Origin: Bacteroidota bacterium
Lineage (GTDB): Bacteria > Bacteroidota > Bacteroidia > AKYH767-A > 2013-40CM-41-45
DNA: 64,000 bases
NCBI GenBank assembly: GCA_016720655.1
Contig: JADKKE010000010.1
Location: forward strand, 69,042-133,041
Reading direction: 5' to 3'
Part shown: piece by piece, positions 6,769 to 47,329 of the stretch
Layout of the letters: the number at the start of each line of letters is the position of its first letter
Position numbering within the stretch: position 1 is the stretch's first letter
Program-made: the position numbers and the translations under genes
The notes under the pieces: generated by a model
Databases searched by the model: none
Seen by the model: only the letters and a program-made list of their open reading frames with translations
What the model was told of the DNA's origin: nothing

Positions 6769-6854
6769 ATCCTTCCATTCTAAAAGTATTTAAGCTTCGT
6801 AATAATCCGGTGACGATTTGATTTTATCGGGAACAGGATTTAATCGAATTCATA

Positions 6855-6900
6855 AAAAACAAAAGGGAAACAAATTTCTTTGCTTCCCTTTTGTCTTTTG
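6855..6900 (-). terminator. Terminator hairpin downstream of porE-like copy 1
   Basis: aagggaaacaaa-tttc-tttgcttccctt followed by a T-rich run on the minus strand. An identical element lies at 16655..16700. Confidence 0.5.
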
Positions 6901-6917
6901 TGTTGTTGGGGATCGGA

Positions 6918-8833
6918 TTATTTCTGTGTCATCTTGGTGACCTTAAATTCTGTTCTCCGGTTGGCCTGGTGCTGCTCTTCGCTACACTCCACACCATTGC
7001 TGCAGCCATTCACCAGCTGCGTTTCTCCGTAGCCTTTGGCAACCAGTCGATCAGCAAGGATGCCGTGCTTCACAAGGTAGTCGACGACCGATTCAGCCCG
7101 CTTCTGGGAGAGTGTCATGTTGTATTTGTCGTCGGCCCGCGAATCGGTATGTGAGCCCAGTTCTATCGAGATATCCGATTGTCACGCATGATTCCTACCA
7201 GTTTGTCAAGGCCTTCCGCTGCATCTGTACGGATATTGTATTTATCCAAATCGTAGTAAATGTTCTCCAATACTATCGGTTTGTTCACGATGATCTGTTC
7301 CATCTCCAGCTTGAGCTTGACAAACATATTCTCGCTCTGCTTCTTTCCCACCGTACTGACCGGTTCCGTATTGGTAAAGTAACTGTCCTTGCTCCCCATC
7401 ACTACATAGTCCGTCTCCGGGTTCAGCTTGAAGAAAAATTTTCCATCCGGACCCGTGGTGAAGAGTTCTTCTTGCCCGTCTTCTTGTTGGTCAGTTCAAC
7501 CACCACGCCCGCGAGCGGTTCCTGTGTCGATTTCTCAACAGCTATCCCTTCCAGGGTAAAGCGTAAATCATTCACCGTAAAGGCATAGATATTATCCTGG
7601 GTCGTATTCTTTGTGTCGCGGTTGCTCGATACCAATCCCGCCGTCCCGCTGTCGTTCAAGGCGATTCCAAAATCATCGTAACTCGTATTGAGCGGATAGC
7701 CCATGTTCTGCGGACGGCTCCAACTCCCTTCACTTTGCGTGCTGCTGAATACATCCAGTCCGCCCATTCCGTAATGGCCCTCTGAACTAAAATACAAGAT
7801 CGAATCCTGGAAGCTCATCGGGAAGAGTTCGTTGTTCGGACTGTTTACCGTTGGACCCAGGTTTTCAGGTTTGCTCCACGCTCCGTTTTCTTTTTTGCAA
7901 CGGTACACATCCGTGCTGTCTTGTCCGTTTGGCATGTCATTCACAAAATAGAGTGTGTTCCCGTCTTTGCTCAAACTCGGATGGCCCAAACTATAGTCTG
8001 CATTGTCGTAGGGAAAATCTGTGATGAAACGAAAGGTGCTGTCTTTCTTTATGCCCTGGCAGATCTTTAAGATCACTACATCGTCGTCAGACTTCTTCAC
8101 TTTCCGGGCCACATACGTATTCCGTGTGAAGTAAACAGTATCTCCTTTGCTGCTGAAGCTGGCCGGACCTTCGTGGTAGATTCCGTTCAGTTCTCCTTTG
8201 AGTAATTCCGGTGCGCCGTAATTCCCCTTCCCATTGTCTTTGGAATAATACAAATCCAAAAACGGACGGCCCGTCCACTGGTAGGTTTTCGTCGAACCTT
8301 TTGCCCGGGGTACGGTCGCTCACAAAAACGATTCCATCCTTGTACCACACCGGGGAGAAGTTACTCTGACCGCTGTTGATGCTGCTGCTCTGAAGTGTAT
8401 ACTTTGCACTATCGGCCTGCCACCGTGTAATGCTGTCGCAGGAACTCCGCATTTTGCGCGCGCTTTCATCGCCCGGCTGAGAGCCCAGGTATTGGTCAAA
8501 ATAATTTTTTGCCTGTTCGTATTTTCCGCTCCGCATCAGAAGCTGTGCATACCGAAGGCGGTGGATCGGCTGGACTTCTTTGAGTTGCATCACCTTTCCA
8601 TAGGCTTCCTCCGCCTTGCCCAAATTATTGGTCATCCGGTAACTCTCTGCCAGTTTGATCTGTCCTTCCGGAAAGTTTTTCTTCCCCAGCGCTTTCTGGT
8701 ATTCTTCGATCGCACTGCTGTAGGCCAGATCCCGGTACATCCGGTTACCCTGACGCATGTGATAACTTGCACAGCTACTCAACAGTACTACTACTGCTGC
8801 ACTCGCTGCAATTTTGGAAAAGTTCTTGATCAT
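6918..8833 (-). pseudogene. porE: PorE-like T9SS outer-membrane protein (TPR + PD40/TolB-like beta-propeller + carboxypeptidase-regulatory-like + OmpA_C), copy 1, broken into four ORFs by frameshifts
   Basis: The fragment ORFs 8087..8833, 7423..8259, 7163..7402 and 6918..7118 are collinear with the 510-aa copy 2. The N-terminus has a lipoprotein-like signal (LLSSCAS) and TPR repeats. PD40 motifs (WSKPENLGPTVNSPNNELFP) and an OmpA_C tail (SQKRAESVVDYLVKHGI...NRRTEFKV) are present. The indels relative to copy 2 are mostly at homopolymers. Confidence 0.7.
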
Positions 8834-8944: not shown

Positions 8945-9874
8945 TTAAAAATAACGTGGCGTCTTGATCTTCATAATATCATATCCAAAATCATAGCCTA
9001 TCATGATCTCGTGAGAGCCGGAGCTGTAATCCTTGATATCGGTAAATGTAAAATCATAGCTGTAGCCCAAACGCAACTTCTTGCTCAGTTGCAATTCCAA
9101 AAGCGCGACAAAGCTGTCGCCTGTCCGGTAACTTCCGCCGATCCAAAGCGTGTTGGCAAGCAAGACATTCAGATTGAAGTCTGCTTCCACCGGTGCATTC
9201 TGTACATACTTCACCAGCACGCTCGGACGAAGAACTACATCCGGATGCACCGGCAATGCCACACCCACTGTCCCAAAGTAATGGCGCACCTGATGCGGGA
9301 TCACCTCGCCGCTATTCACATCGATACTCAGACTCTTGCTTGGATCATAGCTGATGATCGTAGGTACCGATAAGCCAGCATAAAATTTTTCAGTATACAA
9401 ATAGGCGCCTGCTCCAACGTTCGGCAGGAATTTCGATACCTGATCACCCGCAAAAGCCGGATCACCCGTATCCCAGTATTTTAAATCGCTGTTCTTATAA
9501 CTGTAATACCCGCCTCCGGCACGAAGTCCAACCGAGAGTTTCATCTTCGCTCCTACCTTCAGATGATACGCCGCATTCAGGTACGCATCCGTTCTGTCCG
9601 TCACCGCGATTTTATCATGGCTCAGCAATACGCCCCAGCCAAAATTCGTCAGACCCAAAGGACCGTGCAAAGAAGCAACCTGTGTCTCCGGCGCGCCTTT
9701 AAAATCAACCCACTGCTTCCGGTACAACAGTGTCGCCATCATGTACTCTTTGCTCCCCGCATACGCAGGGTTCAACAGCAAATGATTAAACATATACTGG
9801 CTCACAAGGATGTCCTGCTGCGCATAACCACTAAGGCCACTCAGGAACAGGACGATCGTTAGGATTCTTTTCAT
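8945..9874 (-). CDS. porP: T9SS membrane protein of the PorP/SprF family, copy 1
   Basis: Signal peptide followed by QQDILVSQYMFNHLLLNPAYAG...LLYRKQWVDFKGAPETQ, the hallmark N-terminus of PorP/SprF. The protein is 309 aa. It lies directly downstream of an adhesin with a type-B sorting domain. Confidence 0.9.
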   Translation of the reverse strand: MKRILTIVLFLSGLSGYAQQDILVSQYMFNHLLLNPAYAGSKEYMMATLLYRKQWVDFKGAPETQVASLHGPLGLTNFGWGVLLSHDKIAVTDRTDAYLNAAYHLKVGAKMKLSVGLRAGGGYYSYKNSDLKYWDTGDPAFAGDQVSKFLPNVGAGAYLYTEKFYAGLSVPTIISYDPSKSLSIDVNSGEVIPHQVRHYFGTVGVALPVHPDVVLRPSVLVKYVQNAPVEADFNLNVLLANTLWIGGSYRTGDSFVALLELQLSKKLRLGYSYDFTFTDIKDYSSGSHEIMIGYDFGYDIMKIKTPRYF

Positions 9875-9927: not shown

Positions 9928-11067
9928 TTATCTCCGTAAATCCACATATGAATTAAGCCGGATATCAGAATTTTTAATGGTGAGTACAACAAAGTAAGTT
10001 CCCTCCGGCAACGCTTCTCCATCCTTATTTTGCCCGTTCCAATCGGTGTTCATGTAGTTTTCCTTTTTGTAAACTTCATTCCCCCAGCGATTGAATACTG
10101 TGAACATATTTTCCGGGTACCTGTTGATGCCATGGATTTCATAGAACTCACCGAAAGGATCACCGTTGGGAGAAAATCCTGTTGGAAGATCGAGATCACA
10201 TTCCGCTACAGGAGGAACAATGATTTGCACTGTATCATATCCATAGCAGGTTCCATCCGTGATTGTCCACAATAAAATATTGGTACCATCTGTCAGGTTC
10301 GTCACTGTTGAATTTGGTGATGAAATACTGCTGAAAGTAGCACTTCCGCTAAGGTAACTCCAGGTACCGGTTACTGCACCGTTCAGTTGAGCGTCCAAAG
10401 AGAAAATCGGATCACAACCGGTCTGGTCAGTACCCGCATTCGCGGCGATCTGATTCGGCTGAACAATGATCACCGAAGAAGTACTCGTACAGTTGTTTCC
10501 ATCTGTAACGGTAACCGTATATGTATTCGGAGCCAGTCCGCTTGCGGAAGAGGTCGTTCCACCTGACGGTGACCAGGAATAGGTATATGGAATAATACCG
10601 CCATTCACATTTGCATTTGCACTACCATCACTTGTTCCATAGCAGGTAACGTTGACGCTTGTAGCTGTAATTGCTATCGCTTGTGGTTGGGTAATGGTAG
10701 CATTTAAATTAAGTGTACACCCATTTGCATCGGTAATCACAACGGAAATGGTACCCGCGGTTAAGCTATCTGCAATCAATCCTGTATCACTATTCGACCA
10801 TGCATACGTATAAGGTGCGGTTCCACCTGTCGCAGCAGTAACACTTGCATTGCCATTGTCACCGGTATTGCAACTCACCGGTGATGTCGAAGCAATACTC
10901 GAAGCAACAGAACCCGGCTGAAGAATATTTACTGAATCCAAAACCACACAATTATTGTTATCTGTGATAGTCACTACTATATATCCCGCTCCCAAACTAT
11001 CCGCACCGGTTCCAATGTCACCATTTGACCAGGAATAATTATAGGGTGAAGCTCCTCCCCGTGACAC
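9928..11067 (-). CDS. C-terminal segment of the copy-1 SprB-repeat adhesin, carrying the type-B T9SS sorting domain
   Basis: The sorting domain ends ...NGQNKDGEALPEGTYFVVLTIKNSDIRLNSYVDLRR. SprB-type repeats (GGTAPYTYAWSN..DTGL..DSL.AGT..V..TDANGC) are present. Its 5' end overlaps the next segment in another frame. Confidence 0.8.
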   Translation of the reverse strand: MSRGGASPYNYSWSNGDIGTGADSLGAGYIVVTITDNNNCVVLDSVNILQPGSVASSIASTSPVSCNTGDNGNASVTAATGGTAPYTYAWSNSDTGLIADSLTAGTISVVITDANGCTLNLNATITQPQAIAITATSVNVTCYGTSDGSANANVNGGIIPYTYSWSPSGGTTSSASGLAPNTYTVTVTDGNNCTSTSSVIIVQPNQIAANAGTDQTGCDPIFSLDAQLNGAVTGTWSYLSGSATFSSISSPNSTVTNLTDGTNILLWTITDGTCYGYDTVQIIVPPVAECDLDLPTGFSPNGDPFGEFYEIHGINRYPENMFTVFNRWGNEVYKKENYMNTDWNGQNKDGEALPEGTYFVVLTIKNSDIRLNSYVDLRR

Positions 11068-11869
11068 TCACATTGGCAGTACCATCATTTACTCCACTAC
11101 ACCGGGCGTCTACTCCCGAAACTGTTGGAATCAGTTGAGGACTTTCCGTGATGGTGGCTGAAACAGTACCTGTACAATTGTTTGCATCCGTAATTGTAAC
11201 TGTCACTGCGCCGGCAGGCAAACTGTCGGCAGTAATACCTGTGTCTCCATTCGTCCATGAATAAGTAAAAGGAGATGTGCCACCACTGAAGGTGACACTC
11301 GCTGAACCAAGCGCTGAACCGAAACACAAATTATCTATCTGAGAAGAAATGCTTGCAGTAATTGTTGGCAGCGCACTTACCACAACGCTATCCAGGTGTG
11401 TACAATTCACGCTGTCAGTTATGGTGATATAATAAGTACCCGGACTTAATCCGCTTGCAGTGGCAGTGCTTTGTCCTCCCGGATTCCAGGAATACGTATA
11501 CGGGGTGAGACCACTGGTTACGACGACACTGGCTGATCCATTTGATTGTCCACAGGTCGTTGCTGTTGACGAAATGGTGTTTGTGATTGCAGGAGGCTCC
11601 GTTAGTGTGAAGCTTGCTGAATCAACACAGCCATTTGCATCTGTAATATTCACAGTGTAGGAATTGGCAGCAAGTCCTGTGATGTTCTGAGTTGTTTCTG
11701 TAGTTGACCAGAGATATGAAATCGGTGCTACACCTCCATTTACATTCAGGTTAATAAATCCATCTCCGGAATTGTTGCATGTCAGATTGAATCCATTGAA
11801 TCCGAAATTGTCGCAACCGGATCCAATGGCAAAGGTTCCGTAAGAATAAAGGAGGTGTCCAACATACAA
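11039..11869 (-). CDS. Middle segment of the same SprB-repeat adhesin, joined to its neighbours by apparent frameshifts
   Basis: Contains the same repeat family (SGLTPYTYSWNPGG...TITDSVNCT). It overlaps both flanking ORFs. Confidence 0.65.
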   Translation of the reverse strand: MYVGHLLYSYGTFAIGSGCDNFGFNGFNLTCNNSGDGFINLNVNGGVAPISYLWSTTETTQNITGLAANSYTVNITDANGCVDSASFTLTEPPAITNTISSTATTCGQSNGSASVVVTSGLTPYTYSWNPGGQSTATASGLSPGTYYITITDSVNCTHLDSVVVSALPTITASISSQIDNLCFGSALGSASVTFSGGTSPFTYSWTNGDTGITADSLPAGAVTVTITDANNCTGTVSATITESPQLIPTVSGVDARCSGVNDGTANVSVTGRSFTL

Positions 11870-14800
11870 CCATTTGCATCAAAGACTCTGACATTGATTG
11901 TATCTGCAGGTAAATTGCAAGCCTGGTTTCCAAGAATATTATCATCGATATCCCACTCATAAGTATAAGGAGTGCTTCCACCTCCTACTGCTACAGTAAT
12001 ACAAGCAAGTGAATCTCCGTTGCAGGGAACATTGTATCCATTGAACAAAGAAAATGTAGCACTAAGATTGACAGGAATCGGCTGTGTGAATGAAATTGAA
12101 TCTGTATGCTGACAACCATTGCTGTCAGTGACTGTGAGGTAATATGTTCCGGCACTCAGACCCACTGCCGAATCAGCCACATCTCCGTTAGACCATAAGT
12201 ATTGATAAGGCGGTACTCCTCCCGATGCAGTAGCATATGCTGTTCCATCATTGTATCCGAAACAACTCACGTTGACACCACCACTATACACGAAGGGCTC
12301 AGAAATTGTTACACTGGTATCTTTTCTACATCCATTGCCATCAATAATAGTTACATCGTATGTCCCCGAAGTCAATCCGCCAATGCTATCGGTCGTCTGA
12401 GAATTGGACCACAGATATGTATAATTCCCATCTCCGCCGGTAACTGTGAGGGAAATGAAACCATTGCTTCCACCATTGCACTGAACTCCATAACCCTGGA
12501 AATCGGCAGTAACTGCGGGAGTCGTCAATGAATCCGGATTTGGCAAAACGAAACCAACACTATCCGTACAATTATTCACATCCGTTACTATCGCATAAAC
12601 AGTCCCTGAAGTCAGATGACCGCAGGAATCAGTGGTTGCACCGTTTGACCATAAATATGTATAGGGAGCAACACTTCCGGAAGTATTTAGAATTACATAT
12701 CCGGATGAATCTCCAAAACATTTGGGTTGTTGAATAACAGGTGCGTAAGCAAAAGGATTCGGTTGAACAAGTGTTGTTGATCCAAGGATCGAACAACCAT
12801 TGATATCGGATACGGAAACCTCTACTGCTCCTGCTGGTAAATTGAAGATTGTGTCATTTCCTGATCCGGTGGACCAAAGGAAATTGTAAGGTGGAGTTCC
12901 ACCGGTTACTTGAGCAGAAACTGTTCCTGATGAATCTCCGAAACAACGCACATTCACATCTCCAAAAAATTGTATGGAAGTAATGAGCGAAACAAGAGTA
13001 TCCGGTTCCGTCACTGTAATAGTATCCAGTAAAGCACATCCATTAATATCAGTAATTGTCACATCATAAAATCCTGCCGGCAAACCTCCGATGCTGTCGG
13101 TAGTTTGTGAAAGCGGACTCCACATATAAGAATAAGGTATGGAACCGCCATACGCAACTGTTTTGATCCAACCCGAAGATTCACCTCTGCAAATAACATG
13201 ATGAACAATCAGAGAATCCTGTAAAGTTGCAGGTTCTGTAAGAGTGGTTGATATCAGGGTAGTGCAACCATGGTTGTCTGTAACAGTAACTGAATAGGAT
13301 CCGGCAGGAACTTGTGCAATGGAATCAAGAACAGATCCATTCGACCACGCATAAGTATACGGTGCTGTTCCACCGATTACACTTGCCTTCACTGTGCCTG
13401 TAGAATCTCCATTGCATCCGATATTCGTACCACCCGGAGTGATTGAAAAGTTGATGAATGTAGAACTGAGAACAAGAGGTTCGGTGATTAGTACTGTTGT
13501 ATCGAAGGTACACAGATTTGCATCCACGATAGTCACTGTATATGTTCCGGCAAATAAACTGTCGGCACTATTCCCTATATCGCCATTTGACCAACTTACA
13601 TTATAAGGAGGTGTTCCTCCGGATGGAACAACATTGGCTGTTCCCGTAAAACCACCATTGCAAAGTACATCTGTGGAAACGAGAGATGAAGCAGGGATTC
13701 CAACAGCAGCTCCAGGTTGTGTGATCGTTTGTGTAATAATTTGCTGACATCCTTTGGAATCACGAACAGTGTCAGCATATGTGCCGGGTGCAAGTCCGCT
13801 TACGTTTGCTGTGGTATCACCATTGGACCAGGAATGGGTGTACGGACTGGTTCCACCACTTACCGTGGTTGATATTGTTCCGTTTGCATTCCCGTTACAA
13901 GTCACATTATTAAATCCAGAGATCGCTGCATTCAAAATTGTTGGTTCGGTGATCAGCACTGTGTCCTCACTTGTACATCCATTTCGATCTGTAACTGTAA
14001 CGATATATGAATTTGCGGCAAGACCGGTTGCAGTAATTGTTGTTTGACCTCCCGGAGCCCAGGAATAAGTGTACGGTAGAATTCCCCCGGAAGCAGATGC
14101 AGTGGCGGTTCCGTCAGTACCTCCGTTACAACTTACATCCGTTGAACTTGCAACGGATGTAGCAATAATTGTAGGTGGCGCTGTTAGAGTTGTAGAATTT
14201 GTTTTGGTACAGCCACTGGCGTCCGTTACAGTCACTGTAAATGTTCCTACTCCCAGCCCGGTTGCAGTTTGTGTTGTCTGGCCGGAAGGATTCCAGGCAT
14301 ACGTATACGGTAAAGTACCACCTACTGCGACTGCGGTAATTGCTCCATCACTTCCTCCGTTGCAATGCAAATTATATCCGTTGTATCCGGGAGAAGTTAC
14401 ACTCACGTCAATAACCGGAACAGTGATGGAATATGAAAATGTTTGTGAACCGTTTGTCGGACAAGCATTGTCCCTCACAATTACAATGAATGAATACGGT
14501 TGTGATCTCGCATCGGCTAAGGTTGGGGTCCAGGTGAAAGTACCTACAGGGTTCAATATTCCGGACGTTGTAAATGTCGCTCCCGGAATCACGTCATTCC
14601 AATACATCAGGACTGTATCGGTTGGGTTTGGGTCGGTAGAGTTAACAGTAAAAGATATTGTACTTCCCGGACAGCCAACAGTAGCAAAAATATTCGTGCC
14701 ATTAATTCCGGAAGCTATCGGCAACAAGTTTGGGTTACATACCTTGGTTAAAAATTGCATATCCCGGATCACACTACCGATAAGGACACCATTTCTGTAT

Positions 14801-15639
14801 TCACGAACAAGAATAGCTGTTACTCCAATTTCTCCATTCACCGTTGCATTCATATTGATGTCGCCGTTGTTGGAGTTTAAACTCACAGCGGGACTTGATG
14901 ATAAGGGAGATGCAGCGGAATAACCGGGATTAAAAGTAACCGTGCCAATTGTACTTGTTGCTGCGTCGAATTTCTTGGGAGTAACAAATGAATAAACCAA
15001 TGAATCTCCATTCGGATCAAATACTCCATGATTGTATGTGAAACTTTGATTTACACAAACAAAAGCTACAGGAATATTTGTGAATTGTGGCGAACTATTA
15101 CTTTGAAAAGCCAGGTTGTTAAAGGTAGCTTCAACGTACATGTTATCGCTACATGGAGCATTCAGTGTTGTAATTGCGCAATTTCTGCAACACACATAAA
15201 AACTAAATACCCAATCTGCACATTGCTGAGGAAGTGTGACATTGTTTTTGTATTCATATTTCTGATAACCTGCATAAGGTGATGCTGCATTTGTACATTT
15301 GGTTTGCACTGTGCGACAAGGAAAAGTGATTTCCTGCCCTGTGCCGGGCACCAGGTTTAATGTAAAATTCTGATTTCTGCTGCAGGAGGTTGACTTCGCA
15401 TTCAAGGTCACAGTTCCGGGAGCAGCAACTCCTGCACAATCTCTGTAGAAGGATACAGTGACAGTGTATGTGTTCCCACTCACCCAGGTATAGGTAAGAT
15501 CGGCTCCTGACGAGTGTGTTGCGAACGTTTGTTGTGATGGAAAGGCTGCAAAAAAAAGTACGAGGAGAAACGTTAAAACCGGTACTAAAAAACTTCCGGA
15601 ATCTCTTTTTGCAATATTCAGGTATCGTAGTTTCATCAT
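11782..15639 (-). CDS. N-terminal approximately 1285 aa of the copy-1 SprB-like gliding-motility adhesin
   Basis: The likely start is MMKLRYL, with a signal peptide (FLVPVLTFLLVLFFAAFPSQQTFA). The N-terminal domain is conserved with copy 2 (TYTVTVSFYRDC versus TYRVELTFYRDC). More than 12 SprB repeats (GGT.PY.YSWSNG...GTY.VTVTD.NGC) follow. Confidence 0.8.
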   Translation of the reverse strand: MMKLRYLNIAKRDSGSFLVPVLTFLLVLFFAAFPSQQTFATHSSGADLTYTWVSGNTYTVTVSFYRDCAGVAAPGTVTLNAKSTSCSRNQNFTLNLVPGTGQEITFPCRTVQTKCTNAASPYAGYQKYEYKNNVTLPQQCADWVFSFYVCCRNCAITTLNAPCSDNMYVEATFNNLAFQSNSSPQFTNIPVAFVCVNQSFTYNHGVFDPNGDSLVYSFVTPKKFDAATSTIGTVTFNPGYSAASPLSSSPAVSLNSNNGDINMNATVNGEIGVTAILVREYRNGVLIGSVIRDMQFLTKVCNPNLLPIASGINGTNIFATVGCPGSTISFTVNSTDPNPTDTVLMYWNDVIPGATFTTSGILNPVGTFTWTPTLADARSQPYSFIVIVRDNACPTNGSQTFSYSITVPVIDVSVTSPGYNGYNLHCNGGSDGAITAVAVGGTLPYTYAWNPSGQTTQTATGLGVGTFTVTVTDASGCTKTNSTTLTAPPTIIATSVASSTDVSCNGGTDGTATASASGGILPYTYSWAPGGQTTITATGLAANSYIVTVTDRNGCTSEDTVLITEPTILNAAISGFNNVTCNGNANGTISTTVSGGTSPYTHSWSNGDTTANVSGLAPGTYADTVRDSKGCQQIITQTITQPGAAVGIPASSLVSTDVLCNGGFTGTANVVPSGGTPPYNVSWSNGDIGNSADSLFAGTYTVTIVDANLCTFDTTVLITEPLVLSSTFINFSITPGGTNIGCNGDSTGTVKASVIGGTAPYTYAWSNGSVLDSIAQVPAGSYSVTVTDNHGCTTLISTTLTEPATLQDSLIVHHVICRGESSGWIKTVAYGGSIPYSYMWSPLSQTTDSIGGLPAGFYDVTITDINGCALLDTITVTEPDTLVSLITSIQFFGDVNVRCFGDSSGTVSAQVTGGTPPYNFLWSTGSGNDTIFNLPAGAVEVSVSDINGCSILGSTTLVQPNPFAYAPVIQQPKCFGDSSGYVILNTSGSVAPYTYLWSNGATTDSCGHLTSGTVYAIVTDVNNCTDSVGFVLPNPDSLTTPAVTADFQGYGVQCNGGSNGFISLTVTGGDGNYTYLWSNSQTTDSIGGLTSGTYDVTIIDGNGCRKDTSVTISEPFVYSGGVNVSCFGYNDGTAYATASGGVPPYQYLWSNGDVADSAVGLSAGTYYLTVTDSNGCQHTDSISFTQPIPVNLSATFSLFNGYNVPCNGDSLACITVAVGGGSTPYTYEWDIDDNILGNQACNLPADTINVRVFDANGCMLDTSFILTEPLPLDPVATISDSMDSI

Positions 15640-16065
15640 TGATTGGGGTTGTGAAATGGCAAACGGATCACCTCGAATCTTGTTCGAGCGCAAAACGCAC
15701 CAATGGTGCAAGTTCGTATTTCACAGTACATTAATTGACTCTTATACCCCTATCCTTATGAACACTTTTATTAACAAAAACGAAGGATTTTACTCTTGAA
15801 ATTAACAAATCGTCACAATCAATGCATCCGATTCCATTCAAAAAAAAATTGCGTACACGAATTTCAATGCGGCTGTCATGTGCTTATTTTCAACCAAACA
15901 AAATCTTTAATTTTTGGTATCCATGCGGATATCGTTAAAAAGAATTGAAAAATTTTTACACAGGAGCAATAAGCAAACACAAATTTGTGATGCACAACAA
16001 AAATGGAGACACACAAAATTCAATGATAATTACCCTTTCAATCGATCACTCGAAAGGATTGAAAA

Positions 16066-16482
16066 TTATACAGGCCAATCGTTAATAGTCATAACTGTGC
16101 CCGGTGAATCGCCATAGGTCGTAATCGTCATTTTAAGGGCTGAAATTACGATCCTTTCAGTCATGGGATTTGTATCGTGATCATTGTATGATTCAAAGTA
16201 ATTCACAACGTATGCGTCTTCAAACTCTATCGATTTTTCACGCATTCCGGTTCTCCGTGAACGGAAATGAAGTTCACCTCTTTTTGTTAAATGATGTTCC
16301 ACCATCCATTGAATAAAGGTAATATCTCCCGATGTTTCTACTTCAAGGTTGATCAGCCCTCCGAACACACGACCATTGGGTCTTCCTGTTTCTGTGATGG
16401 GTTGATTGAATGCATAATCACAATGCATCACTCTGTACGTTTTTCCTTCGATTACCAATTCGGCATTGTACACAATAGGCAT
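16066..16482 (-). CDS. Hcp/TssD-like tube protein of the Bacteroidota T6SS-iii type, orphan gene
   Basis: 138 aa. The sequence MPIVYNAELVIEGKTYRVMHCDYAFNQPITETGRPNGRVFGGLINLEVETSGD...SIEFEDAYVVNYFESYNDHDTNPMTERIVISA matches my recollection of Bacteroidota TssD proteins in size and motif order. Confidence 0.55.
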   Translation of the reverse strand: MPIVYNAELVIEGKTYRVMHCDYAFNQPITETGRPNGRVFGGLINLEVETSGDITFIQWMVEHHLTKRGELHFRSRRTGMREKSIEFEDAYVVNYFESYNDHDTNPMTERIVISALKMTITTYGDSPGTVMTINDWPV

Positions 16483-16654
16483 AATAGTTGTTTTTAATGA
16501 ATAAGAAATTTTTAAGATCTGAATCCTTTGACCGATTCAATTGAATCACAAGTTATAAATTTTCAATAACATAGCAAACTTCCAATGGAAGCCCGCCCTT
16601 TCGGAAATACTAAGACCGTCACAATCAACAGCATTTTGTAATAGATTATAAAAA

Positions 16655-16700
16655 GACAAAAGGGAAACAAATTTCTTTGCTTCCCTTTTGTCTTTTGTGT
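16655..16700 (-). terminator. Terminator hairpin downstream of porE-like copy 2
   Basis: The same hairpin plus T-run as at 6855..6900. Confidence 0.5.
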
Positions 16701-16714: not shown

Positions 16715-18391
16715 TTATTGCTGTGTCATCTTGGTGACCTTAAATTCTGTTCTCCGGTTGGCCTGGTGCTGCTCTTCGCTACACTCCACACCATTGCTGC
16801 AGCCATTCACCAGCTGCGTTTCTCCATAGCCTTTGGCAACCAGACGATCAGCAAGGATGCCGTGCTTCACAAGGTAGTCGACGACCGATTCAGCCCGCTT
16901 CTGGGAGAGTGTCATGTTGTATTTATCGTCGGCCCGCGAATCGGTATGTGAGCCCAGTTCTATCGAGATATCCGGATTGTCACGCATGATTCCTACCAGT
17001 TTGTCAAGGCCTTCCGCTGCATCAGTACGGATATTGTATTTATCCAAATCGTAGTAAATGTTCTCCAGAACTATCGGTTTGTTCACGATGATCTGTTCCA
17101 TCTCCAGCTTGAGCTTGACAAACATATTCTCGCTCTGCTTCTTTCCCACCGTACTCACCGGTTCCGTATTGGTAAAATAACTGTCCTTGCTCCCCATCAC
17201 TACATAGTCCGTCTCCGGGTTCAGCTTGAAGAAAAATTTTCCATCCGGGCCCGTGGTGAAGAGTTCTTTCTTGCCCGTCTTCTTGTTGGTCAGTTCAACC
17301 ACCACGCCCGCCAGCGGTTCCTGTGTCGATTTCTCAACAGCTATCCCTTCCAGGGTAAAGCGTAGATCATTCACCGTAAAGGCGTAGATATTATCCTGGG
17401 TCGTATTCTTTGTGTCGCGGTTACTCGATACCAATCCGGCCGTCCCGCTGTCGTTCAAGGCAATCCCAAAATCATCGTAACTCGTATTGAGCGGATAGCC
17501 CATGTTCTGCGGACGGCTCCAACTCCCTTCACTTTGCGCGCTGCTGAATACATCCAGTCCGCCCATTCCGTAATGGCCCTCTGAACTAAAATACAAGATC
17601 GAATCTGGAAGCTCATCGGGAAGAGTTCGTTGTTCGGACTGTTTACCGTTGACCGAGATTTTCAGGTTTGCTCCACGCTCCGTTTTCTTTTTGCAACGGT
17701 ACACGTCCGTGCCGCCTTGTCCGCCCGGCATGTCACTCACAAAATAGAGTGTGTTCCCGTCTTTGCTCAAGCTCGGATGGCCCAAACTATAGTCTGCATT
17801 GTCGTAGGGAAAATCTGTGATGAAACGAAAGGTGCTGTCTTTCTTTATGCCCTGGCAGATCTTTAAGATCACCACATCGTCGTCTGACTTCTTCACTTTC
17901 CGGGCCACATACGTATTCCGTGTGAAGTAAACCGTATCTCCTTTGCTGCTGAAGCTGGCCGGACCTTCGTGGTAGATTCCGTTCAGTTCTCCTTTGAGTA
18001 ATTCCGGTGCGCCGTAATTCCCCTTCCCATTGTCTTTGGAATAATACAAATCCAAAAACGGACGGCCCGTCCACTGGTAGGTTTTCGTCGAACCTTTGCC
18101 CGGGGTACGGTCGCTCACAAAAACGATTCCATCCTTGTACCACACCGGGGAGAAGTTACTCTGACCGCTGTTGATGCTGCTGCTCTGAAGTGTATACTTT
18201 GCACTATCGGCCTGCCACCGTGTGATACTGTCGCAGGAGCTCCGCATTTTGCGCGCGCTTTCATCGCCCGGCTGAGAGCCCAGGTATTGGTCAAAATAAT
18301 TTTTTTATCCGGTTACCCTGACGCATGTGATAACTTGCACAGCTACTCAACAGTACTACTACTGCTGCACTCGCTGCAATTTTGGAAAAGT
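16715..18391 (-). pseudogene. porE: PorE-like OmpA/PD40 protein, copy 2, with a deletion of about 250 bp in the TPR region and internal compensating frameshifts
   Basis: The 510-aa ORF 16715..18247 carries the PD40 repeats, the carboxypeptidase-regulatory-like region and the OmpA_C domain. The original start at 18391 (MIKNFSKIAASAAVVVLLSSCASYHMRQGN) now runs into a stop because a deletion is visible at 18295..18310. The stretch KKKTERGANLKISVNGKQSEQRTLPDELPD is out of frame relative to copy 1. Confidence 0.7.
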
Positions 18392-18501: not shown

Positions 18502-19431
18502 TTAAAAATAACGTGGCGTCTTGATCTTCATAATATCATATCCAAAATCATAGCCTATCATGATCTCGTGAGAGCCGGAGCTGTAATCCTTGATATCGGT
18601 AAATGTAAAATCATAGCTGTAGCCCAATCGTAATTTTTTGCTCAGTTGCAATTCTAAAAGCGCTACAAAGCTGTCGCCTGTCCGGTAGCTTCCACCGATC
18701 CAAAGCGTGTTGGCAAGCAAGACATTCAGATTGAAGTCTGCTTCCACCGGTGCATTCTGTACATACTTCACCAGCACGCTCGGACGAAGAACTACATCCG
18801 GATGCACCGGCAATGCCACACCCACTGTCCCAAAGTAATGGCGCACCTGATGCGGGATCACCTCGCCGCTGTTCACATCGATACTCAGACTCTTGCTCGG
18901 ATCATAACTGATGATCGTGGGTACCGATAAGCCCGCATAAAATTTTTCAGTATACAAATAGGCACCTGCTCCAACGTTCGGCAGGAATTTCGATACCTGA
19001 TCACCCGCAAAAGCCGGATCACCCGTATCCCAGTATTTCAAATCGCTGTTCTTATAACTGTAATACCCGCCTCCGGCACGAAGTCCAACCGAGAGTTTCA
19101 TCTTCGCTCCTACCTTCAGATGATACGCAGCATTCAAATACGCATCTGTTCTGTCAGTCACCGCGATCTTATCGTGGCTCAGTAAAACTCCCCAGCCAAA
19201 ATTCGTCAGACCCAAAGGACCGTGCAAAGAAGCAACCTGTGTCTCCGGCGCGCCTTTAAAATCAACCCACTGCTTCCGGTACAACAGTGTCGCCATCATG
19301 TACTCTTTGCTCCCCGCATACGCCGGGTTCAACAGCAAATGATTAAACATATACTGGCTCACAAGGATGTCCTGCTGCGCATAACCACTAAGGCCACTCA
19401 GGAACAGGACGATCGTTAGGATTCTTTTCAT
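18502..19431 (-). CDS. porP: PorP/SprF-family T9SS membrane protein, copy 2, identical protein to copy 1
   Basis: The ORF translation is identical to that of 8945..9874. Confidence 0.9.
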   Translation of the reverse strand: MKRILTIVLFLSGLSGYAQQDILVSQYMFNHLLLNPAYAGSKEYMMATLLYRKQWVDFKGAPETQVASLHGPLGLTNFGWGVLLSHDKIAVTDRTDAYLNAAYHLKVGAKMKLSVGLRAGGGYYSYKNSDLKYWDTGDPAFAGDQVSKFLPNVGAGAYLYTEKFYAGLSVPTIISYDPSKSLSIDVNSGEVIPHQVRHYFGTVGVALPVHPDVVLRPSVLVKYVQNAPVEADFNLNVLLANTLWIGGSYRTGDSFVALLELQLSKKLRLGYSYDFTFTDIKDYSSGSHEIMIGYDFGYDIMKIKTPRYF

Positions 19432-19522: not shown

Positions 19523-22500
19523 TTACTTCGAAACATAGCGTCTTAAATCAACATATGTATTTTTCTTGATTTCAGAATTTTTAATGGTGAGCACAACAAA
19601 GTAAGTTCCTTCAGGGAGTTCTTCACCATTGTTGTTTTGACCTTTCCAATCCGTGTTCACATAATTTTCTTTTGCATACACTTCATTGCCCCAACGATTG
19701 AAGACACGGAATGAATTGTTCGGATAACCTTCAATACCTTTTATTTCATATCCATCATTGTAAGTATCATCGTTCGGAGAAAATCCTGTTGGCAAATCAA
19801 TATCACACTGATTGTCATAGTCGACCGAAACAGTATCAGCAGATTGACAGGTTCCATTTGTTACCTGCCAGACAAATACTGTTTGTCCGGGTTGCAAAGC
19901 ACTCACATCTGTTGTGTCATTGTTCGGATTAACAATACTACCTTGTCCGGGAGCCTGTATAGTCCAGCTGCCTTGTCCATAAGTAAGACCGATTGCAAGC
20001 AATTGTCCGTGATCAATACACAGTTCCTGATAAGCACCGGCATCCGAAGAAACAGGTTGGTCGGCAGTGACAATTCTACTGTCAGCTCCGGTACACGCAC
20101 CATTTGAAATGATCCAGGTGAGAGTGTCTGTTCCGTAATCCAATAAATCAGCGGTTGCATTTGGAAGTGTAGGATCATTGAAAGCTGAATTTCCCGTTGA
20201 TGACCAAATTCCATTGAAGCCGGTGTATGCTGTTGCGTTCAATTGTATTTGAGCAAGACCACAAAATGCAGTATCTACACCGGCATCCGCAACAAATGTT
20301 GTATAATTAAAAACTGTAACATCATCAGAAGCAGTACACCCATTTGCATCTGTAACTGTCCAGGTAACCTGATTGAAACCCGGCGATAAATTACCTGCTG
20401 TTGTGTTTGGATCTGTGGTTCCCGCAAAAGTTATTCCTGTTGTGGAACTCCAAACACCGGATTGTCCGGTAAGCAGACTTGCTGCCAGTTGAATACTCGT
20501 TCCGGAACACATGGCGGTATCCGGACCGGCAATTGCAAGTACCGGAGATGGCTGATTTAAATTTACAGTTTGTTGAGTAGAACAATTGTTCTGATCAGTA
20601 ACAGTTACGACATATATTCCCGCATCAACATTGGAAATATCCTGAGATGTAGCCCCTCCCGGATTCCACGCATAATTGTATGAGCCCAATCCACCCGAAA
20701 CGCTGATATCAATCGAGCCATTGCTTCCGGCATAACATGTCGGTTGGATTGTGGATGTAACAGTGACAGCGATTTGTGGTGGTGAATCTATCTGGACATT
20801 CACAAACGTTGAACATGCTGCCGCATCAATTACGAACAGGTCATAGGAACCGGCAACGAGATTTGTAGCTATCGAAGAACTTCCACCATATGGAGTCCAG
20901 GAATATGTATACGGTGCGGTGCCACCGCTCACCAATTGTGCACTGGCAATTCCGGTACTGTCACCAAAGCAGGATGCATCCGATGACAAAACCGTAACAA
21001 CAATCGGTGCCGGTTCACGAACCTGAACCGTATCGAATGACAAACAACCGTTCGCATCCTGAACACCTGCTATGTAAATACCGGCAGTCAAACTCACAGC
21101 TGTATCCGTAAACTGCGGCGGCACAGTGTTCCATGTGTATGTAAAAGGTGCTGTTAAAGAAGAATCCGGAACAACGAGCGCTGTACCATCAGCATATCCA
21201 TTGCAGGAAACATCATCAATTACATATGCAAAGGGAACAGGAATATTATCTGAAACCGGTACATCAACAGAACTGATACATCCATTTGCATCAGTAACTT
21301 CAACATTATAAATTCCAGAAGGTATACCGGAAATACTCGAAGTAGTTGCACTCAGGGTATCCCAGGCATATTGATAATTGGGAGTTCCGCCACTTACAGT
21401 TACAGTGGCTGAACCATTTGCAACACCACAGGAAGAATTTGTTGAAGATCCGGTAAGGATCAATTGTGGTGCTGAATTTATACTTATCGTATCTGTTCCA
21501 ACACATCCTACAGTATCCGTGATGGTAACAACATATGATCCCGCGGCAAGATTAATTGCCGTAGGTCCGGTCTGAACCGGATTTGTATTCCATATATAAG
21601 TATAGCCCGGTGTTCCACCACTCACACTCACAGTTGCAAATCCGGTTGTGTCACCAAAACAATTTAATACTCCGGAGACCGAATCCACCGAAACCACCAA
21701 TGCTGTTGAAGAAGGTGAAACAGTTACAGAATCAGTCGTTACACAACCTCTGCTGTCTGTGATTGTAATGTGATAAACCCCTGCAGCAAGACCTGTTGCT
21801 GTATCTTCAGTAGTAATCGGATTGGTATCCCAGGAATACGAATATCCGGGAGTACCTCCGGAAGCAACGACAATCGCGACACCTGTATTGGTACCGCTGC
21901 AAGGAGATGAGCTTACACTGGTTGAAGCAGTCAACTGCGGTGGATCCGTAATCGTAACCGTTTGTGTCGCTACACAACCTGTTGTTGCTTCCGAAACAGT
22001 AACAGTATAAATTCCGGAAGTCAGATTTGAAATTGTAGCTGTACTAAAATTTCCCGGAGTCCATAGATAGGTATAAGTACCTGTTGAAGAACTGGGAACT
22101 GCTGTGGCTGTTCCATCCGTGAGTCCGTGACAGGAGATATCTGTACTGTTCAGAGCAGATATAGGTGAATTTACAAATACATTAAAAGAATAGGTTTGGA
22201 AACCGCTGTTCGGACATGCATCATCCAGAACCGTAACTGTAAATGTGTATGGATTTGTGCTGATACTTCCTGCAGGCGGTGTCCAGCAAAAATTTCCTGT
22301 TGGGTGTGGAAATCCGGAAGTGGTAAAAGTTGCTCCGGTAATTCCCTGGTTCCAGGTCATCGTCACGATTTGCCCGGCATCAATATCATCTGAATTAATA
22401 TCAAAACACAATTGTTGTCCGGGACAAACTGTTGTGTCACGAACAGAGGTACCATTGATTCCTGTCGCGGTGGGAAGATTGTTGGTACAATTGCGCACGT

Positions 22501-23392
22501 AAAATTCCATGTCCCGAACCACACTGCCAATCAAAACACCATTTCTGTATTCCTGCACCAGGACAGCGAGAACACCAATCTCAATTTGAGTTGGGGTCAT
22601 TACGATATCACCGGTTTGAGGGTCAATTGTTATTGCCGGAGATGAAGAAATTGGATTGATGCCGGTATATCCCGGTAAAAACGGAACTGACATAATTGAT
22701 CCCAATGAATCCTGCAAAGGATCAACGAGTGAATACACGAGCGAATCTCCATCCGGATCAGTAACGCCATGGTTATATGTAAAATTTTGTCCGACACACA
22801 GAAATGCAACCGGTACATTGCTAAACTGAGGGGAAGAATTGCATGTGAAATTCAGATTGTCGAGAGTTGTTTCAATATACATCCCAGGATTCGAGCCCAC
22901 CACACAGGGTGAGGGCAGATTCAATGTTGTGATATCACAATTTCTGCAACAATACGACCAGCTGATTACCCAATCCGCACATTGCATTGGCAAGGTGATG
23001 ATCCCTGAATATCTGTATTGCTGGATTCCGGGAATTGTTGACAGCGGATCTTCACAGGAAGTGATGACAGTCGGACAAGGGTAGGTAATTTCACCACCTG
23101 TTCCTGCTACCTGTAATAAGGTGTCTGTAAAAAACTGATTGCAACTTGCTGATCTGAAAACAATACCCACCCCGTTAGGCGGAAGTGAACCTTTACAATC
23201 TCTGTAAAAAGTTAATTCCACCCTGTAGGTATTCCCACCCAAACAGGCATAGGAAATGTCAGAACCGACAAGGTGTGTGGCAGATGCTTTCTGAGGTAGA
23301 ATTGCAGCTGTGGAGGCCAGCGATATTAACAAAATCAACCTGCGAAGTATTTGTTTCATGTTCGTATTTTTTAATTCAAAAATTGGTTGCAA
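19523..23392 (-). CDS. SprB-repeat gliding-motility-type adhesin with a type-B T9SS sorting domain, copy 2 (1289 aa, apparently intact)
   Basis: The signal peptide probably starts at MKQILRRLILLISLASTAAILP (around 23359). The N-terminal domain is conserved with copy 1, followed by SprB repeats (GGTPGYSYSW..., GGTAPYTYSWTP...) and the sorting domain ...EGTYFVVLTIKNSEIKKNTYVDLRRYVSK. Confidence 0.85.
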   Translation of the reverse strand: MQPIFELKNTNMKQILRRLILLISLASTAAILPQKASATHLVGSDISYACLGGNTYRVELTFYRDCKGSLPPNGVGIVFRSASCNQFFTDTLLQVAGTGGEITYPCPTVITSCEDPLSTIPGIQQYRYSGIITLPMQCADWVISWSYCCRNCDITTLNLPSPCVVGSNPGMYIETTLDNLNFTCNSSPQFSNVPVAFLCVGQNFTYNHGVTDPDGDSLVYSLVDPLQDSLGSIMSVPFLPGYTGINPISSSPAITIDPQTGDIVMTPTQIEIGVLAVLVQEYRNGVLIGSVVRDMEFYVRNCTNNLPTATGINGTSVRDTTVCPGQQLCFDINSDDIDAGQIVTMTWNQGITGATFTTSGFPHPTGNFCWTPPAGSISTNPYTFTVTVLDDACPNSGFQTYSFNVFVNSPISALNSTDISCHGLTDGTATAVPSSSTGTYTYLWTPGNFSTATISNLTSGIYTVTVSEATTGCVATQTVTITDPPQLTASTSVSSSPCSGTNTGVAIVVASGGTPGYSYSWDTNPITTEDTATGLAAGVYHITITDSRGCVTTDSVTVSPSSTALVVSVDSVSGVLNCFGDTTGFATVSVSGGTPGYTYIWNTNPVQTGPTAINLAAGSYVVTITDTVGCVGTDTISINSAPQLILTGSSTNSSCGVANGSATVTVSGGTPNYQYAWDTLSATTSSISGIPSGIYNVEVTDANGCISSVDVPVSDNIPVPFAYVIDDVSCNGYADGTALVVPDSSLTAPFTYTWNTVPPQFTDTAVSLTAGIYIAGVQDANGCLSFDTVQVREPAPIVVTVLSSDASCFGDSTGIASAQLVSGGTAPYTYSWTPYGGSSSIATNLVAGSYDLFVIDAAACSTFVNVQIDSPPQIAVTVTSTIQPTCYAGSNGSIDISVSGGLGSYNYAWNPGGATSQDISNVDAGIYVVTVTDQNNCSTQQTVNLNQPSPVLAIAGPDTAMCSGTSIQLAASLLTGQSGVWSSTTGITFAGTTDPNTTAGNLSPGFNQVTWTVTDANGCTASDDVTVFNYTTFVADAGVDTAFCGLAQIQLNATAYTGFNGIWSSTGNSAFNDPTLPNATADLLDYGTDTLTWIISNGACTGADSRIVTADQPVSSDAGAYQELCIDHGQLLAIGLTYGQGSWTIQAPGQGSIVNPNNDTTDVSALQPGQTVFVWQVTNGTCQSADTVSVDYDNQCDIDLPTGFSPNDDTYNDGYEIKGIEGYPNNSFRVFNRWGNEVYAKENYVNTDWKGQNNNGEELPEGTYFVVLTIKNSEIKKNTYVDLRRYVSK

Positions 23393-26311: not shown

Positions 26312-26502
26312 ACAGAGAGGGTATCAGATTACACAAGAATAGACGTTCAAAGTAGCGAGATTTTGCGAAAAGACAAAGAAATGATGAAATATTGTAAAAT
26401 TCTGAATCTTTCAGCTGTATAAACCGTTGAAAACACTTGTCAGAAAGGGCCTGCAATCGATCTGGAATTTTATCTTTGCGCCCGATTATTCTAAGTTTAA
26501 AT

Positions 26503-27372
26503 ATGGAGATCCCTAAAGGAAAACTCATTTCTATCGGAGGTAATGAGGACAAAGGCACTGAGCCGGAACCGAAATTCGCTCAGAAAAACAACCTCAATTT
26601 TTTCGAACTTCAGATTCTTGGAAGAATCATGCATGAAGCAGGCGGACACGATGCTTGCATCGAAGTCATCACCAGCGCCAGTTCTATTCCCGAGGAAGTC
26701 GGACAAAATTATCTCGACGCATTTGGAAAACTCGGCTGCAAGAAAATCAGGATCATGAATATCCGAAATCGTGAGGATGCTCAGAAGCCGGAAATGATCG
26801 AAAGACTTCGCAACTGCGACAGTGTCTTATTCAGCGGAGGAAATCAATTGCGATTGTCATCCATTTTTGGCGGCACTGAATTTCTTGAAATTCTTTCCTA
26901 CAGATATATTCATGAAGAAACTTTTGTCATCGCAGGTACAAGTGCCGGCGCGATGGCGATGTCGAACACGATGATTTATCAGGGTTCCAGTTCGGAGGCT
27001 TTGCTTAAAGGTGAAGTTAAAATTACAACAGGCCTTGCATTCATCAAAGATGTGATTATCGATTCGCATTTTGTTACACGCGGACGATTCGGTCGTTTGA
27101 CACAGGCTGTAACCGCGAATCCATCCTGTATCGGAATTGGATTGGGAGAAGATACCGGCGTGCTCATCACTGAAGGTCGTTACATGGAAGCGGTTGGATC
27201 AGGCCTGATCATCATTATCGATGGACACAATATTCGACATACCAACATTGCAGATCTGAAAGAAGGCTCCCCTATCTCCATCGAAAACTTAATCGTGCAT
27301 GTGATGGCAAAAGGAAATCACTTCGATTTGAAGAGCAGAAAATTCTACGCTGAAGCATTGGTGAATAAATAA
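26503..27372 (+). CDS. cphB: Cyanophycinase (peptidase S51)
   Basis: MEIPKGKLISIGGNEDKG..., catalytic Ser in GTSAGAMAMS, GGNQLRL. Divergent from cphA. The ORF-track start at 26437 is probably too far upstream. Confidence 0.8.
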   Translation: MEIPKGKLISIGGNEDKGTEPEPKFAQKNNLNFFELQILGRIMHEAGGHDACIEVITSASSIPEEVGQNYLDAFGKLGCKKIRIMNIRNREDAQKPEMIERLRNCDSVLFSGGNQLRLSSIFGGTEFLEILSYRYIHEETFVIAGTSAGAMAMSNTMIYQGSSSEALLKGEVKITTGLAFIKDVIIDSHFVTRGRFGRLTQAVTANPSCIGIGLGEDTGVLITEGRYMEAVGSGLIIIIDGHNIRHTNIADLKEGSPISIENLIVHVMAKGNHFDLKSRKFYAEALVNK

Positions 27373-42292: not shown

Positions 42293-42301
42293 GATAAAAA
42301 T

Positions 42302-42871: not shown

Positions 42872-43045
42872 AAGCAAGCGAATAACAGCACATTTGCAAT
42901 AGTCTGGCATTCATGCACTGCTGACTATTTGTGGTTTTAAAAAGGTCAGTGCTCCGCATGAACATTTGTGATAAAAAGCCTGCCCATCGCAAATCTGCAA
43001 CCCGTTGGCTCAGTACGAACTAACTACAATACTTAAATTATCCTT

Positions 43046-43264: not shown

Positions 43265-43363
43265 ATTTAACAGAAAAGGGTTGGAGCATTTTGTCTGACA
43301 TAAAAGAGTGAAGGGTATGTTGCACAACTTCGCAAAAGAAGGCGGAAAGTAATATGGTCTGTC

Positions 43364-43660: not shown

Positions 43661-43703
43661 GTATTCTTTATCACATTGTTATGATATCGGCGATACTATT
43701 CAA

Positions 43704-47313: not shown

Positions 47314-47329
47314 GTAAAAAAGAAATTTC

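Follow-up and report, generated by a model that had tools for sequence, protein, structure and literature searches.

A solitary TssD (Hcp) gene between two T9SS adhesin modules of an environmental Bacteroidota, read as a probable auxiliary tube protein of a distant T6SS-iii

A gene encoding a TssD (Hcp) protein stands alone between two T9SS adhesin modules in the window, by which we mean the whole 64-kb stretch of Bacteroidota DNA that was analysed. We favour, at a probability of about 0.72, the reading that this independently transcribed gene supplies a distant T6SS-iii with an auxiliary Hcp of the minor type, the adjacency to T9SS genes being synteny by descent. According to this reading, a promoter of its own would drive tssD as a monocistronic unit, and the protein is predicted to form or join hexameric rings and so become part of the T6SS-iii tube, probably as a low-abundance minor or specialised Hcp and not as the bulk tube subunit. 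Its specialised role could be effector recognition, or it could provide a ring at the tube tip adjacent to VgrG. The location between two adhesin modules would then most likely represent the inherited gene order of one small lineage, with no functional link.

Identity and fold of the orphan TssD

The product of the orphan gene (MBL0257533.1) is labelled 'hypothetical' in NCBI records of the window species, and NCBI already annotates its orthologue P0005 as TssD. A reading made from the sequence alone (hereafter the sequence-only reading) had described a 138-aa tube protein of the T6SS-iii type, and both profile and structure searches bore this out. The TssD profile PF17642 was the sole Pfam match and covered residues 6-120, nearly its full length, with an E value of 2.3e-33 and 115.2 bits (gathering cut-off 25.8 bits); an NCBIfam scan gave no model match. 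Comparison with PDB sequences identified Hcp1 of F. johnsoniae (6bdc, 1e-18) and TssD of B. fragilis (7yw0/8gra, 2.9e-13). The AlphaFold2 model, built as a monomer from a 60-sequence alignment, reached a pLDDT of 93.7 and a pTM of 0.83, and its best Foldseek match was again 6bdc Hcp1 (TM 0.82/0.92, 32% identity, E 3e-12), with TM values of 0.80-0.92 across the top structural matches (6bdc, 8gra/7yw0). Overall, Foldseek ranked Bacteroidota Hcps above proteobacterial Hcps, and both far above eCIS and phage tubes.

All six near-invariant residues of the family (P35, G42, G69, F87, E97 and W136) are kept in both the orphan TssD and P0005. The N-terminus of the orphan, MPIVYNAELVIEGK, has no hydrophobic leader or signal-peptide-like stretch, and Pfam searches detected neither a T9SS C-terminal domain nor similarity to any T9SS component. 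The orphan gene therefore encodes a genuine and intact TssD-family protein with the Hcp fold, which has the profile, fold and invariant residues of a T6SS-iii TssD/Hcp but is located outside a T6SS cluster.

A complete T6SS-iii locus in sister assemblies

An exact-protein look-up of the window PorP retrieved GCA_016718015.1, GCA_963852685.1, GCA_016718125.1, GCA_016702675.1 and a number of metagenome contigs, all of which show the order SprB2-PorP-PorE-TssD-SprB1-PorP-PorE. A look-up with the sigma-54 activator added GCA_016704735.1, from which the retrieved stretch covers only the sprB1-porP1-porE1 side and not tssD. Exact look-ups with the window TssD and the window cyanophycin synthetase gave no match. 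The T6SS locus was found through a TssC search starting from the nearest canonical loci, of which one match (P0159) was looked up and proved to be encoded in exactly these five sister assemblies, within a complete T6SS-iii locus. This locus comprises TssN, TssO, ClpV, TssB, TssC, two TssD genes, a 319-aa PAAR protein, a NucA/NucB DNase, two further TssD genes and two VgrG genes, and also encodes unannotated proteins of 147-174 aa and 374 aa, among others. On JADKEM010000001.1 (1.93 Mb), the one sister assembly from which the separation is known because both loci lie on the same contig, the orphan is located at ~57 kb and the T6SS genes at ~369-387 kb, ~310 kb apart.

The conspecific assemblies are close to the window (TssD 99% identical in L029; DNA about 96-98%), and from them we infer that a T6SS-iii is present in the window's own assembly. 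Among the options that the sequence-only reading had offered, that of an orphan Hcp working with a T6SS from another locus is thus the favoured one, as all five sister assemblies carry a complete T6SS-iii. The same reading had held that a complete T6SS with its own Hcp, together with a recent, pseudogene-like copy of no conserved linkage, would speak against it; a complete T6SS with its own Hcps was indeed found, but the orphan copy is not recent, does not resemble a pseudogene and retains a conserved linkage.

Relation to other TssD paralogues

The T6SS-iii locus of the sister assemblies encodes three TssD proteins of 129 aa each that are 87-92% mutually identical (TssD1-3) and a fourth of 137 aa (TssD4) directly upstream of VgrG. 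The orphan shares 37-39% of its residues with TssD1-3 and 43% with TssD4, and with 37-43% identity to the in-locus TssDs it is not a recent copy of them. Neighbour joining of 131 family members placed both orphan orthologues with TssD4 and with the VgrG-proximal third TssD of another locus (L007 D3), a grouping that is weak evidence because the sequences are short and diverged and the method is distance-based. Both orphan orthologues, TssD4 and L007 D3 also have in common an insertion of 7 residues close to the C-terminus.

TssD4 of the sister-assembly locus (L038) and L007 D3 are only 44% identical, in comparison to 96% for TssC and 80-91% for TssD1-2 of the same two loci, which shows that the VgrG-proximal long TssD class evolves much faster than the bulk tube TssDs. 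A division of the same kind was shown by experiment in B. fragilis, where the abundant sHcp forms the tube and minor Hcps form heteromers that recognise and co-vary with effectors (PMC13213661), and Bacteroidales T6SS loci in general hold one major Hcp plus minor Hcps evolving with effectors (PMC13213661). The orphan has both properties sought for such a minor or specialised class, namely low identity to the multi-copy TssDs and membership of a divergent class, the latter taken from the weak tree. A minor or specialised role is probable because the orphan groups with the long, fast-evolving TssD4 and not with the near-identical 129-aa TssD1-3.

Gene neighbourhood in the window

The genes around the orphan follow the minus-strand order sprB2, porP2, porE2, tssD, sprB1, porP1, porE1 (Table 1), which confirms the earlier statement that tssD is encoded alone between porE2 and the copy-1 SprB adhesin; the interval 15640-16700 brackets the gene and both of its spacers. 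These spacers measure 232 bp (porE2-tssD) and 354-430 bp (tssD-sprB1), and neither contains a minus-strand ORF of at least 50 aa.

Table 1. Positions in the 64-kb window of the orphan tssD gene, its neighbours and the nearby signals.
Feature	Coordinates	Strand	Description
sprB2	19523..23392	-	SprB-repeat adhesin; Pfam SprB x7 and CHU_C (type B T9SS) C-terminal domain
porP2	18502..19431	-	PorP/SprF family, 309 aa; PF11751 E 4.6e-78
porE2	16715..18247	-	PorE-like T9SS outer-membrane protein; PD40, CarboxypepD_reg, OmpA
porE2 intrinsic terminator hairpin	16651..16696	-	21-bp perfect stem followed by U-run; at edge of duplicated porP-porE segment
Candidate Bacteroidota-type promoter of tssD	16548..16578	-	TTTG-N19-TAACTTGT; 65 nt upstream of ATG
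Orphan tssD (hcp)	16066..16482	-	ATG-initiated ORF, 138 aa; coordinates include stop codon 16066-16068
Weak hairpin, possible terminator	16032..16059	-	Just past tssD stop codon; from pattern scan
Conserved non-coding block before sprB1	15661..15776	-	Probable promoter or leader of sprB1
sprB1	9928..15636 (start 15711/15636)	-	SprB-repeat adhesin with CHU_C; three frameshifted ORFs in window
porP1	8945..9874	-	PorP/SprF family, 309 aa; PF11751 E 4.6e-78; part of 96-99% identical repeat
porE1 and terminator region	6854..8833 (gene 8833-~6900)	-	TPR/PD40 fragments (Pfam); second copy of duplicated segment

Pfam scans of the window detected no TssB/C, VgrG, PAAR, ClpV or TssE/F/G/K/N/O/P elsewhere in the 64 kb, in agreement with the claim that no other T6SS component is present; these scans covered ORFs of at least 120 aa, antisense overlaps of larger genes being left out, and nearly all ORFs of at least 70 aa in the ORF-poor 41-58 kb part. 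No effector/immunity pair, VgrG, PAAR or adaptor gene adjoins the orphan, whose neighbours are porE2 and sprB1, and no phage genes flank it (Pfam). The missing effector, VgrG or PAAR partner, unlike the situation in typical auxiliary modules and in Bacteroidales minor Hcps, counts against an auxiliary Hcp.

A porP-porE segment of ~3.3 kb is duplicated in the window at 96-99% identity (repeat families D1-D8), the sprB parts of the two modules being only ~75% alike, and the boundary of copy B falls at 16651, just upstream of tssD. In the window, porE2 is N-terminally truncated by indels (638 aa in sister assemblies L029/L030), porE1 is fragmented (intact, 638 aa, in L027/L030) and sprB1 is frameshifted (intact, 1912 aa, in sister assemblies and in the related locus L001). 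Comparison with L029 revealed 1-nt homopolymer indels, two of them in sprB1, and two larger gaps including one of 227 bp in porE2. The frameshifts of sprB1 and of both porE copies are very probably an assembly artefact, because the same genes are intact in the sister assemblies and differ there mostly by single-base homopolymer indels, and for the same reasons they were rejected as a sign of a decaying locus.

Transcription signals around tssD

The porE2 terminator hairpin folds at -28.9 kcal/mol (z = -9.1), and none of 200 shuffled sequences folds as well. Such a strong intrinsic terminator would insulate tssD from transcription out of porE2, so that tssD would need a promoter of its own. The candidate element TTTG-N19-TAACTTGT occurs only once in the window and not at all in the T6SS locus L038. 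In the form TTTG-N18/19-TAACTTGT it is kept in the window and in the related loci L002 and L001, with N18 and diverged flanks in the distant L001, and it presumably acts as the tssD promoter. A sigma-70 consensus scan found three sites in comparison to a shuffle mean of 3.9, and plain TAnnTTTG counts across the window showed no excess over chance.

The hairpin beyond the tssD stop codon is weak (-11.4 kcal/mol, z only -1.65) and its stem is not conserved in the alignments with L002 or L001, so read-through into sprB1 is possible. The block preceding sprB1 is 98% identical between the window and L002, in comparison to 72-82% for the adjoining spacer; two of its sub-blocks are also kept in L001, and it has no second copy in the window. 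Rfam matches in the two tssD spacers were all sub-threshold and fell on the terminator hairpin, and no family was found for this block. A sigma-54 promoter proposed by eye within the block was rejected since the GG-N10-GC spacing is unmet. Since tssD has a promoter-like element of its own and a conserved block lies close to sprB1, the two genes may be transcribed separately.

A search for a cis-motif common to the orphan tssD and the T6SS locus found none. The sequence CCACCCrTTyGGGTAGTTGAC precedes tssD1 and tssD3 of the T6SS locus and is absent before the orphan, and there is thus no sign of shared cis-regulation with that locus. Its absence is a second observation that counts against an auxiliary Hcp.

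Distribution of the porE-tssD-sprB gene order

An exhaustive HMMER search of 1.84 billion representatives recovered 654 TssD-family clusters, and no more than three of the representatives belong to the orphan clade. Three matches were obtained at E <=1e-30, namely two of the orphan type, P0005 (62% identity) and the truncated P0002 (82% identity), and the triple-domain fusion P0006, the window protein not being listed. A word-indexed homologue search reached 4 proteins only. A locus search with a 3-sequence TssD alignment found only L001 among GTDB representatives and nothing in two metagenome scans. P0009 (1437 aa) was dropped as a TssD candidate because Pfam disagrees, and P0008 was left out of the context comparison (1-kb contig).

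The order porE-tssD-sprB occurs in three lineages, namely the window species, L002 (TssD 93.5% identical; porE-tssD is visible there too) and the P0005/L001 species (CALMQM01; TssD 62% identical). In the last of these, 18 contigs always show porE-tssD-sprB(1912 aa)-porP, and most of its short-read contigs end 190-300 bp upstream of tssD, as would be expected if that species also has the porP-porE repeat. The SprB proteins of the window and P0005 species are 83% identical, in comparison to 62% for TssD; survival of the gene order at 62% TssD identity is also expected under a functional link. The next relatives at 36-42% identity (P0007, P0003, P0004 and P0010) are all inside canonical T6SS-iii clusters, beside TssC or VgrG, and outside the small clade every relative with a readable context is within a T6SS-iii locus. 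These contexts indicate that adjacency to T9SS genes is, on the genomes searched, a property peculiar to one small lineage and not a recurrent association. Co-occurrence of tssD with SprB loci in relatives, which the sequence-only reading had asked about, therefore holds for three lineages and fails outside the small clade.

The strongest rival explanation is that the Hcp fold was recruited by co-option to the T9SS adhesin modules, either as a cytoplasmic ring chaperone or regulator of SprB-type cargo or in T6SS-T9SS cross-talk, which we regard as improbable. Co-option would fit the order conserved in three lineages, the strong purifying selection on tssD described below and the lack of an adjoining T6SS effector, and tssD and sprB1 do share an orientation, with a weak unconserved hairpin between them that permits read-through. 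However, SprB/PorP/PorE modules are widespread and so are TssD genes, yet their linkage is limited to a tiny clade; a full T6SS-iii with the related TssD4 exists in the same species, and every family-invariant Hcp residue is kept. Co-option is also difficult to reconcile with the proteins themselves, as TssD lacks a signal peptide and SprB1, a Sec/T9SS substrate of 1912 aa, is far too large for the Hcp lumen; moreover, the promoter-like element of tssD and the conserved block before sprB1 suggest separate transcription, and sprB2 has no tssD partner. A mechanism in which a cytoplasmic ring of the orphan Hcp acts on SprB1 biogenesis, or couples T6SS firing to adhesion or gliding, and in which this function would hold porE-tssD-sprB together, is if anything slightly more doubtful.

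Two proposals of the sequence-only reading are affected by these results. That the tube gene is 'coupled' to a T9SS locus is not supported, in view of the 21-bp-stem terminator, the promoter-like element of its own, the distance of ~400 bp to sprB1 and the restriction to one small clade. That the protein was co-opted for something else, here the T9SS, found no support given the narrow distribution, the retained Hcp invariants and the full T6SS in the species.

Selection, intactness and remaining alternatives

Comparison of the orphan tssD with L002, with a 1-nt indel of the latter removed, gave 93.5% amino acid identity, a dN of 0.035 and a dS of ~1.07, for a dN/dS of 0.02-0.03. Every sister assembly, like the 18 contigs of the P0005 species, has the gene intact. 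Comparison with L001 gave a dN of 0.34 with saturated dS, which makes the nominal ratio of 0.15 unreliable. In L002 the 1-nt indel cuts the tssD ORF to 87 aa, and the diverged part 3' of this indel still has a dN/dS of 0.02, indicating that the frameshift is either very recent or an assembly error in the one short-read contig concerned (SRR28161545). The orphan tssD is under strong purifying selection, and the low dN/dS together with intact ORFs excludes a decaying relic.

The region is also mosaic. Identity of the window to L002 is 94-100% across porE2 and the opening ~100 nt of tssD and falls to 80-86% beyond, which indicates that a recombination event broke off within tssD and that the porP-porE cassette has been homogenised.

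These data bear on a further alternative, less probable than co-option, in which tssD is a functionless leftover stranded by a rearrangement or by insertion of an adhesin module and now decaying while linkage carries it along. Isolation from all T6SS partners, a TssD identity between species (62%) below that of the neighbouring SprB (83%), the truncated ORF of L002 and the recombinational mosaic would all be compatible with such a history. It is opposed by a dN/dS of 0.02-0.03 at a dS of ~1, by the value of 0.02 persisting downstream of the L002 indel and by the intact ORFs of the sister assemblies and the 18 second-species contigs, as well as by a conserved promoter-like element and a confident Hcp model with all invariant residues kept. 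The rapid divergence is itself typical of the VgrG-proximal TssD class (44% between TssD4 and L007 D3, in comparison to 96% for TssC). The last alternative, that tssD is left over from a phage or eCIS tail tube, the phage version of which the sequence-only reading had also raised, is scarcely credible: Hcp and phage tail tubes have a common fold and viral tubes do appear as distant structural matches, but PHROGs gave 0 matches, the best viral structural matches (E >=8e-7, 6-16% identity, TM 0.5-0.69) are weaker than Hcp1 (E 3e-12, 32%, 0.82/0.92), the nearest sequence relatives are in T6SS-iii loci and no phage genes flank tssD.

Significance

Extra hcp genes outside T6SS loci are frequent in other organisms (PMC13213661) and orphan hcp/vgrG/PAAR islands have been catalogued (PMC13098142). 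Orphan hcp genes are thus a well-known feature of T6SS genomes and the TssD family is already curated, which makes the present finding largely ordinary. It is mildly new that an environmental Bacteroidota has a TssD of the minor type that stands alone, is under selection, lacks an effector partner and lies between two T9SS adhesin modules. The 'hypothetical' product can be named TssD, a result of little importance beyond annotation. The auxiliary-Hcp reading would mean that environmental Bacteroidota, like Proteobacteria, retain selected Hcp paralogues distant from the T6SS-iii cluster. The fast-evolving long TssD class may extend the picture of major and minor Hcps from gut Bacteroidales to another lineage, and a solitary minor-type Hcp could serve as a handle on cargo encoded elsewhere.

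Comparison with known systems

The orphan and auxiliary hcp genes of Proteobacteria resemble the gene described here in that a tube paralogue lies far from the structural cluster in a genome with a complete T6SS (here, in sister assemblies), and in that it has its own promoter, a candidate in the present case, and presumably feeds the same machine. They differ in belonging to PF05638 and not to the Bacteroidota TssD family PF17642. In addition, in a typical auxiliary module hcp is accompanied by vgrG, PAAR, adaptor or effector-immunity genes, whereas the orphan tssD is alone among T9SS genes. The SprB/PorP(SprF)/PorE modules, each an adhesin with a type-B CTD and its own PorP/SprF-like and PorE-like partners, contribute flanking genes only, and nothing but adjacency places the orphan TssD in the T9SS.

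Hcp1 of F. johnsoniae (PDB 6BDC), a T6SS-iii tube protein, is similar in size and fold and is the best match in both sequence and structure; the orphan differs from it by the 7-residue insertion near the C-terminus and by being encoded outside a T6SS locus. The minor Hcps (Hcp1-4) of Bacteroidales GA2/GA3 systems, as opposed to the major sHcp (PMC13213661), are found inside the T6SS locus beside cognate effectors and have been shown to form heterohexamers. The orphan lies ~310 kb from the locus in the one sister assembly with both on a single contig, has no effector next to it and belongs to an environmental Bacteroidota MAG, not to a gut Bacteroidales. Both systems nevertheless have several paralogues of low identity, with a conserved multi-copy class accompanied by divergent ones.

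Probable recombination within the orphan tssD and the flanking cassettes

Comparison of the window with the corresponding locus of a relative (L002; TssD 93.5% identical in amino acids) showed that porE2, the adjoining spacer and the 5' part of the orphan tssD were 94–100% identical, in comparison to 80–86% for the 3' part of tssD and 72–82% for the downstream spacer. Synonymous divergence (dS) between the two loci was 0.10 for porE and ~1.07 for tssD. This fall in identity inside the gene points to a recombination breakpoint within tssD at window ~16360–16400.

The two porP-porE cassettes of the adhesin modules, each with its terminator hairpin, were nearly identical to one another (see table) while the sprB genes adjoining them were only ~75% alike, and this disparity suggests that the duplication reflects gene conversion or a recent cassette replacement and not a simple tandem duplication. 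A non-coding block upstream of sprB1 was also highly conserved in L002 and partly kept in the locus of a more distant species (L001; TssD 62% identical), with the remainder of the spacer diverged. This block occurred once in the window, had no counterpart upstream of sprB2 and matched no Rfam family; it may serve sprB1 as a leader or a site of regulation.

A contig scan of GTDB species representatives returned the 62% orthologue of L001 as its sole match. Both peptide patterns of the scan match the window TssD exactly and the window's own species was not returned, indicating either that it has no representative in the collection or that this stretch was masked.

Positions of features in the window
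Feature	Window position	Remarks
porP-porE cassette and terminator hairpin, two copies	6854–~9900; 16651–~19450	96–99% identity
Indel/gap sites in sprB1 and porE2	~11060, ~11804, ~12292, ~17605, ~17651, ~17692, ~18306	Relative to intact sister assembly
Non-coding block upstream of sprB1	15661–15776	98% identical to L002
Cyanophycin synthetase (884 aa); cyanophycinase-like Peptidase_S51 gene in divergent orientation	23657–27372	
Class-V aminotransferase	30426–31675	Broken into two ORFs
Low-GC stretch, few long ORFs	~41000–58000	29–40% GC vs 42–49% in highest-GC stretches
Abi_alpha	48479–49276	Inside low-GC stretch

Assembly quality and neighbouring genes

Against an intact sister assembly, sprB1 and porE2 were split by single-base homopolymer indels together with gaps of 27 bp and 227 bp. 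The split genes of the window show a pattern typical of long-read assembly errors, and gene calls in it therefore need care.

The cyanophycin synthetase and Peptidase_S51 genes, an ordinary pairing, are the immediate upstream neighbours of the first adhesin module. The low-GC stretch resembles a defence or mobile island in which some genes may be frameshifted, and also encodes two DUF5343 fragments, a PD-(D/E)XK nuclease and a LuxR-type response regulator.

TssD classes of the T6SS-iii loci

In the T6SS-iii locus of the sister assemblies (L038), the 21-nt motif CCACCCrTTyGGGTAGTTGAC followed by TAnnTTTG was found upstream of both tssD1 and tssD3 (L038 11707 and 14915), making it a candidate shared promoter or operator of these major Hcp genes; it was absent upstream of the orphan tssD. 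An exhaustive HMMER search for TssD relatives also identified P0006, a 428-aa protein of three fused TssD domains (PF17642 x3, E 8.8e-85) that would in effect form a covalently linked half-ring of Hcp. The VgrG-proximal long TssD of L038 (15514–15927) was only 44% identical to that of the T6SS-iii locus of another organism (L007 10001–10420), where TssC was 96% and TssD1-2 80–91% identical between the same two organisms. These identities mark the VgrG-proximal long TssD as a rapidly evolving class of 'minor Hcp' in organisms other than gut Bacteroidales.
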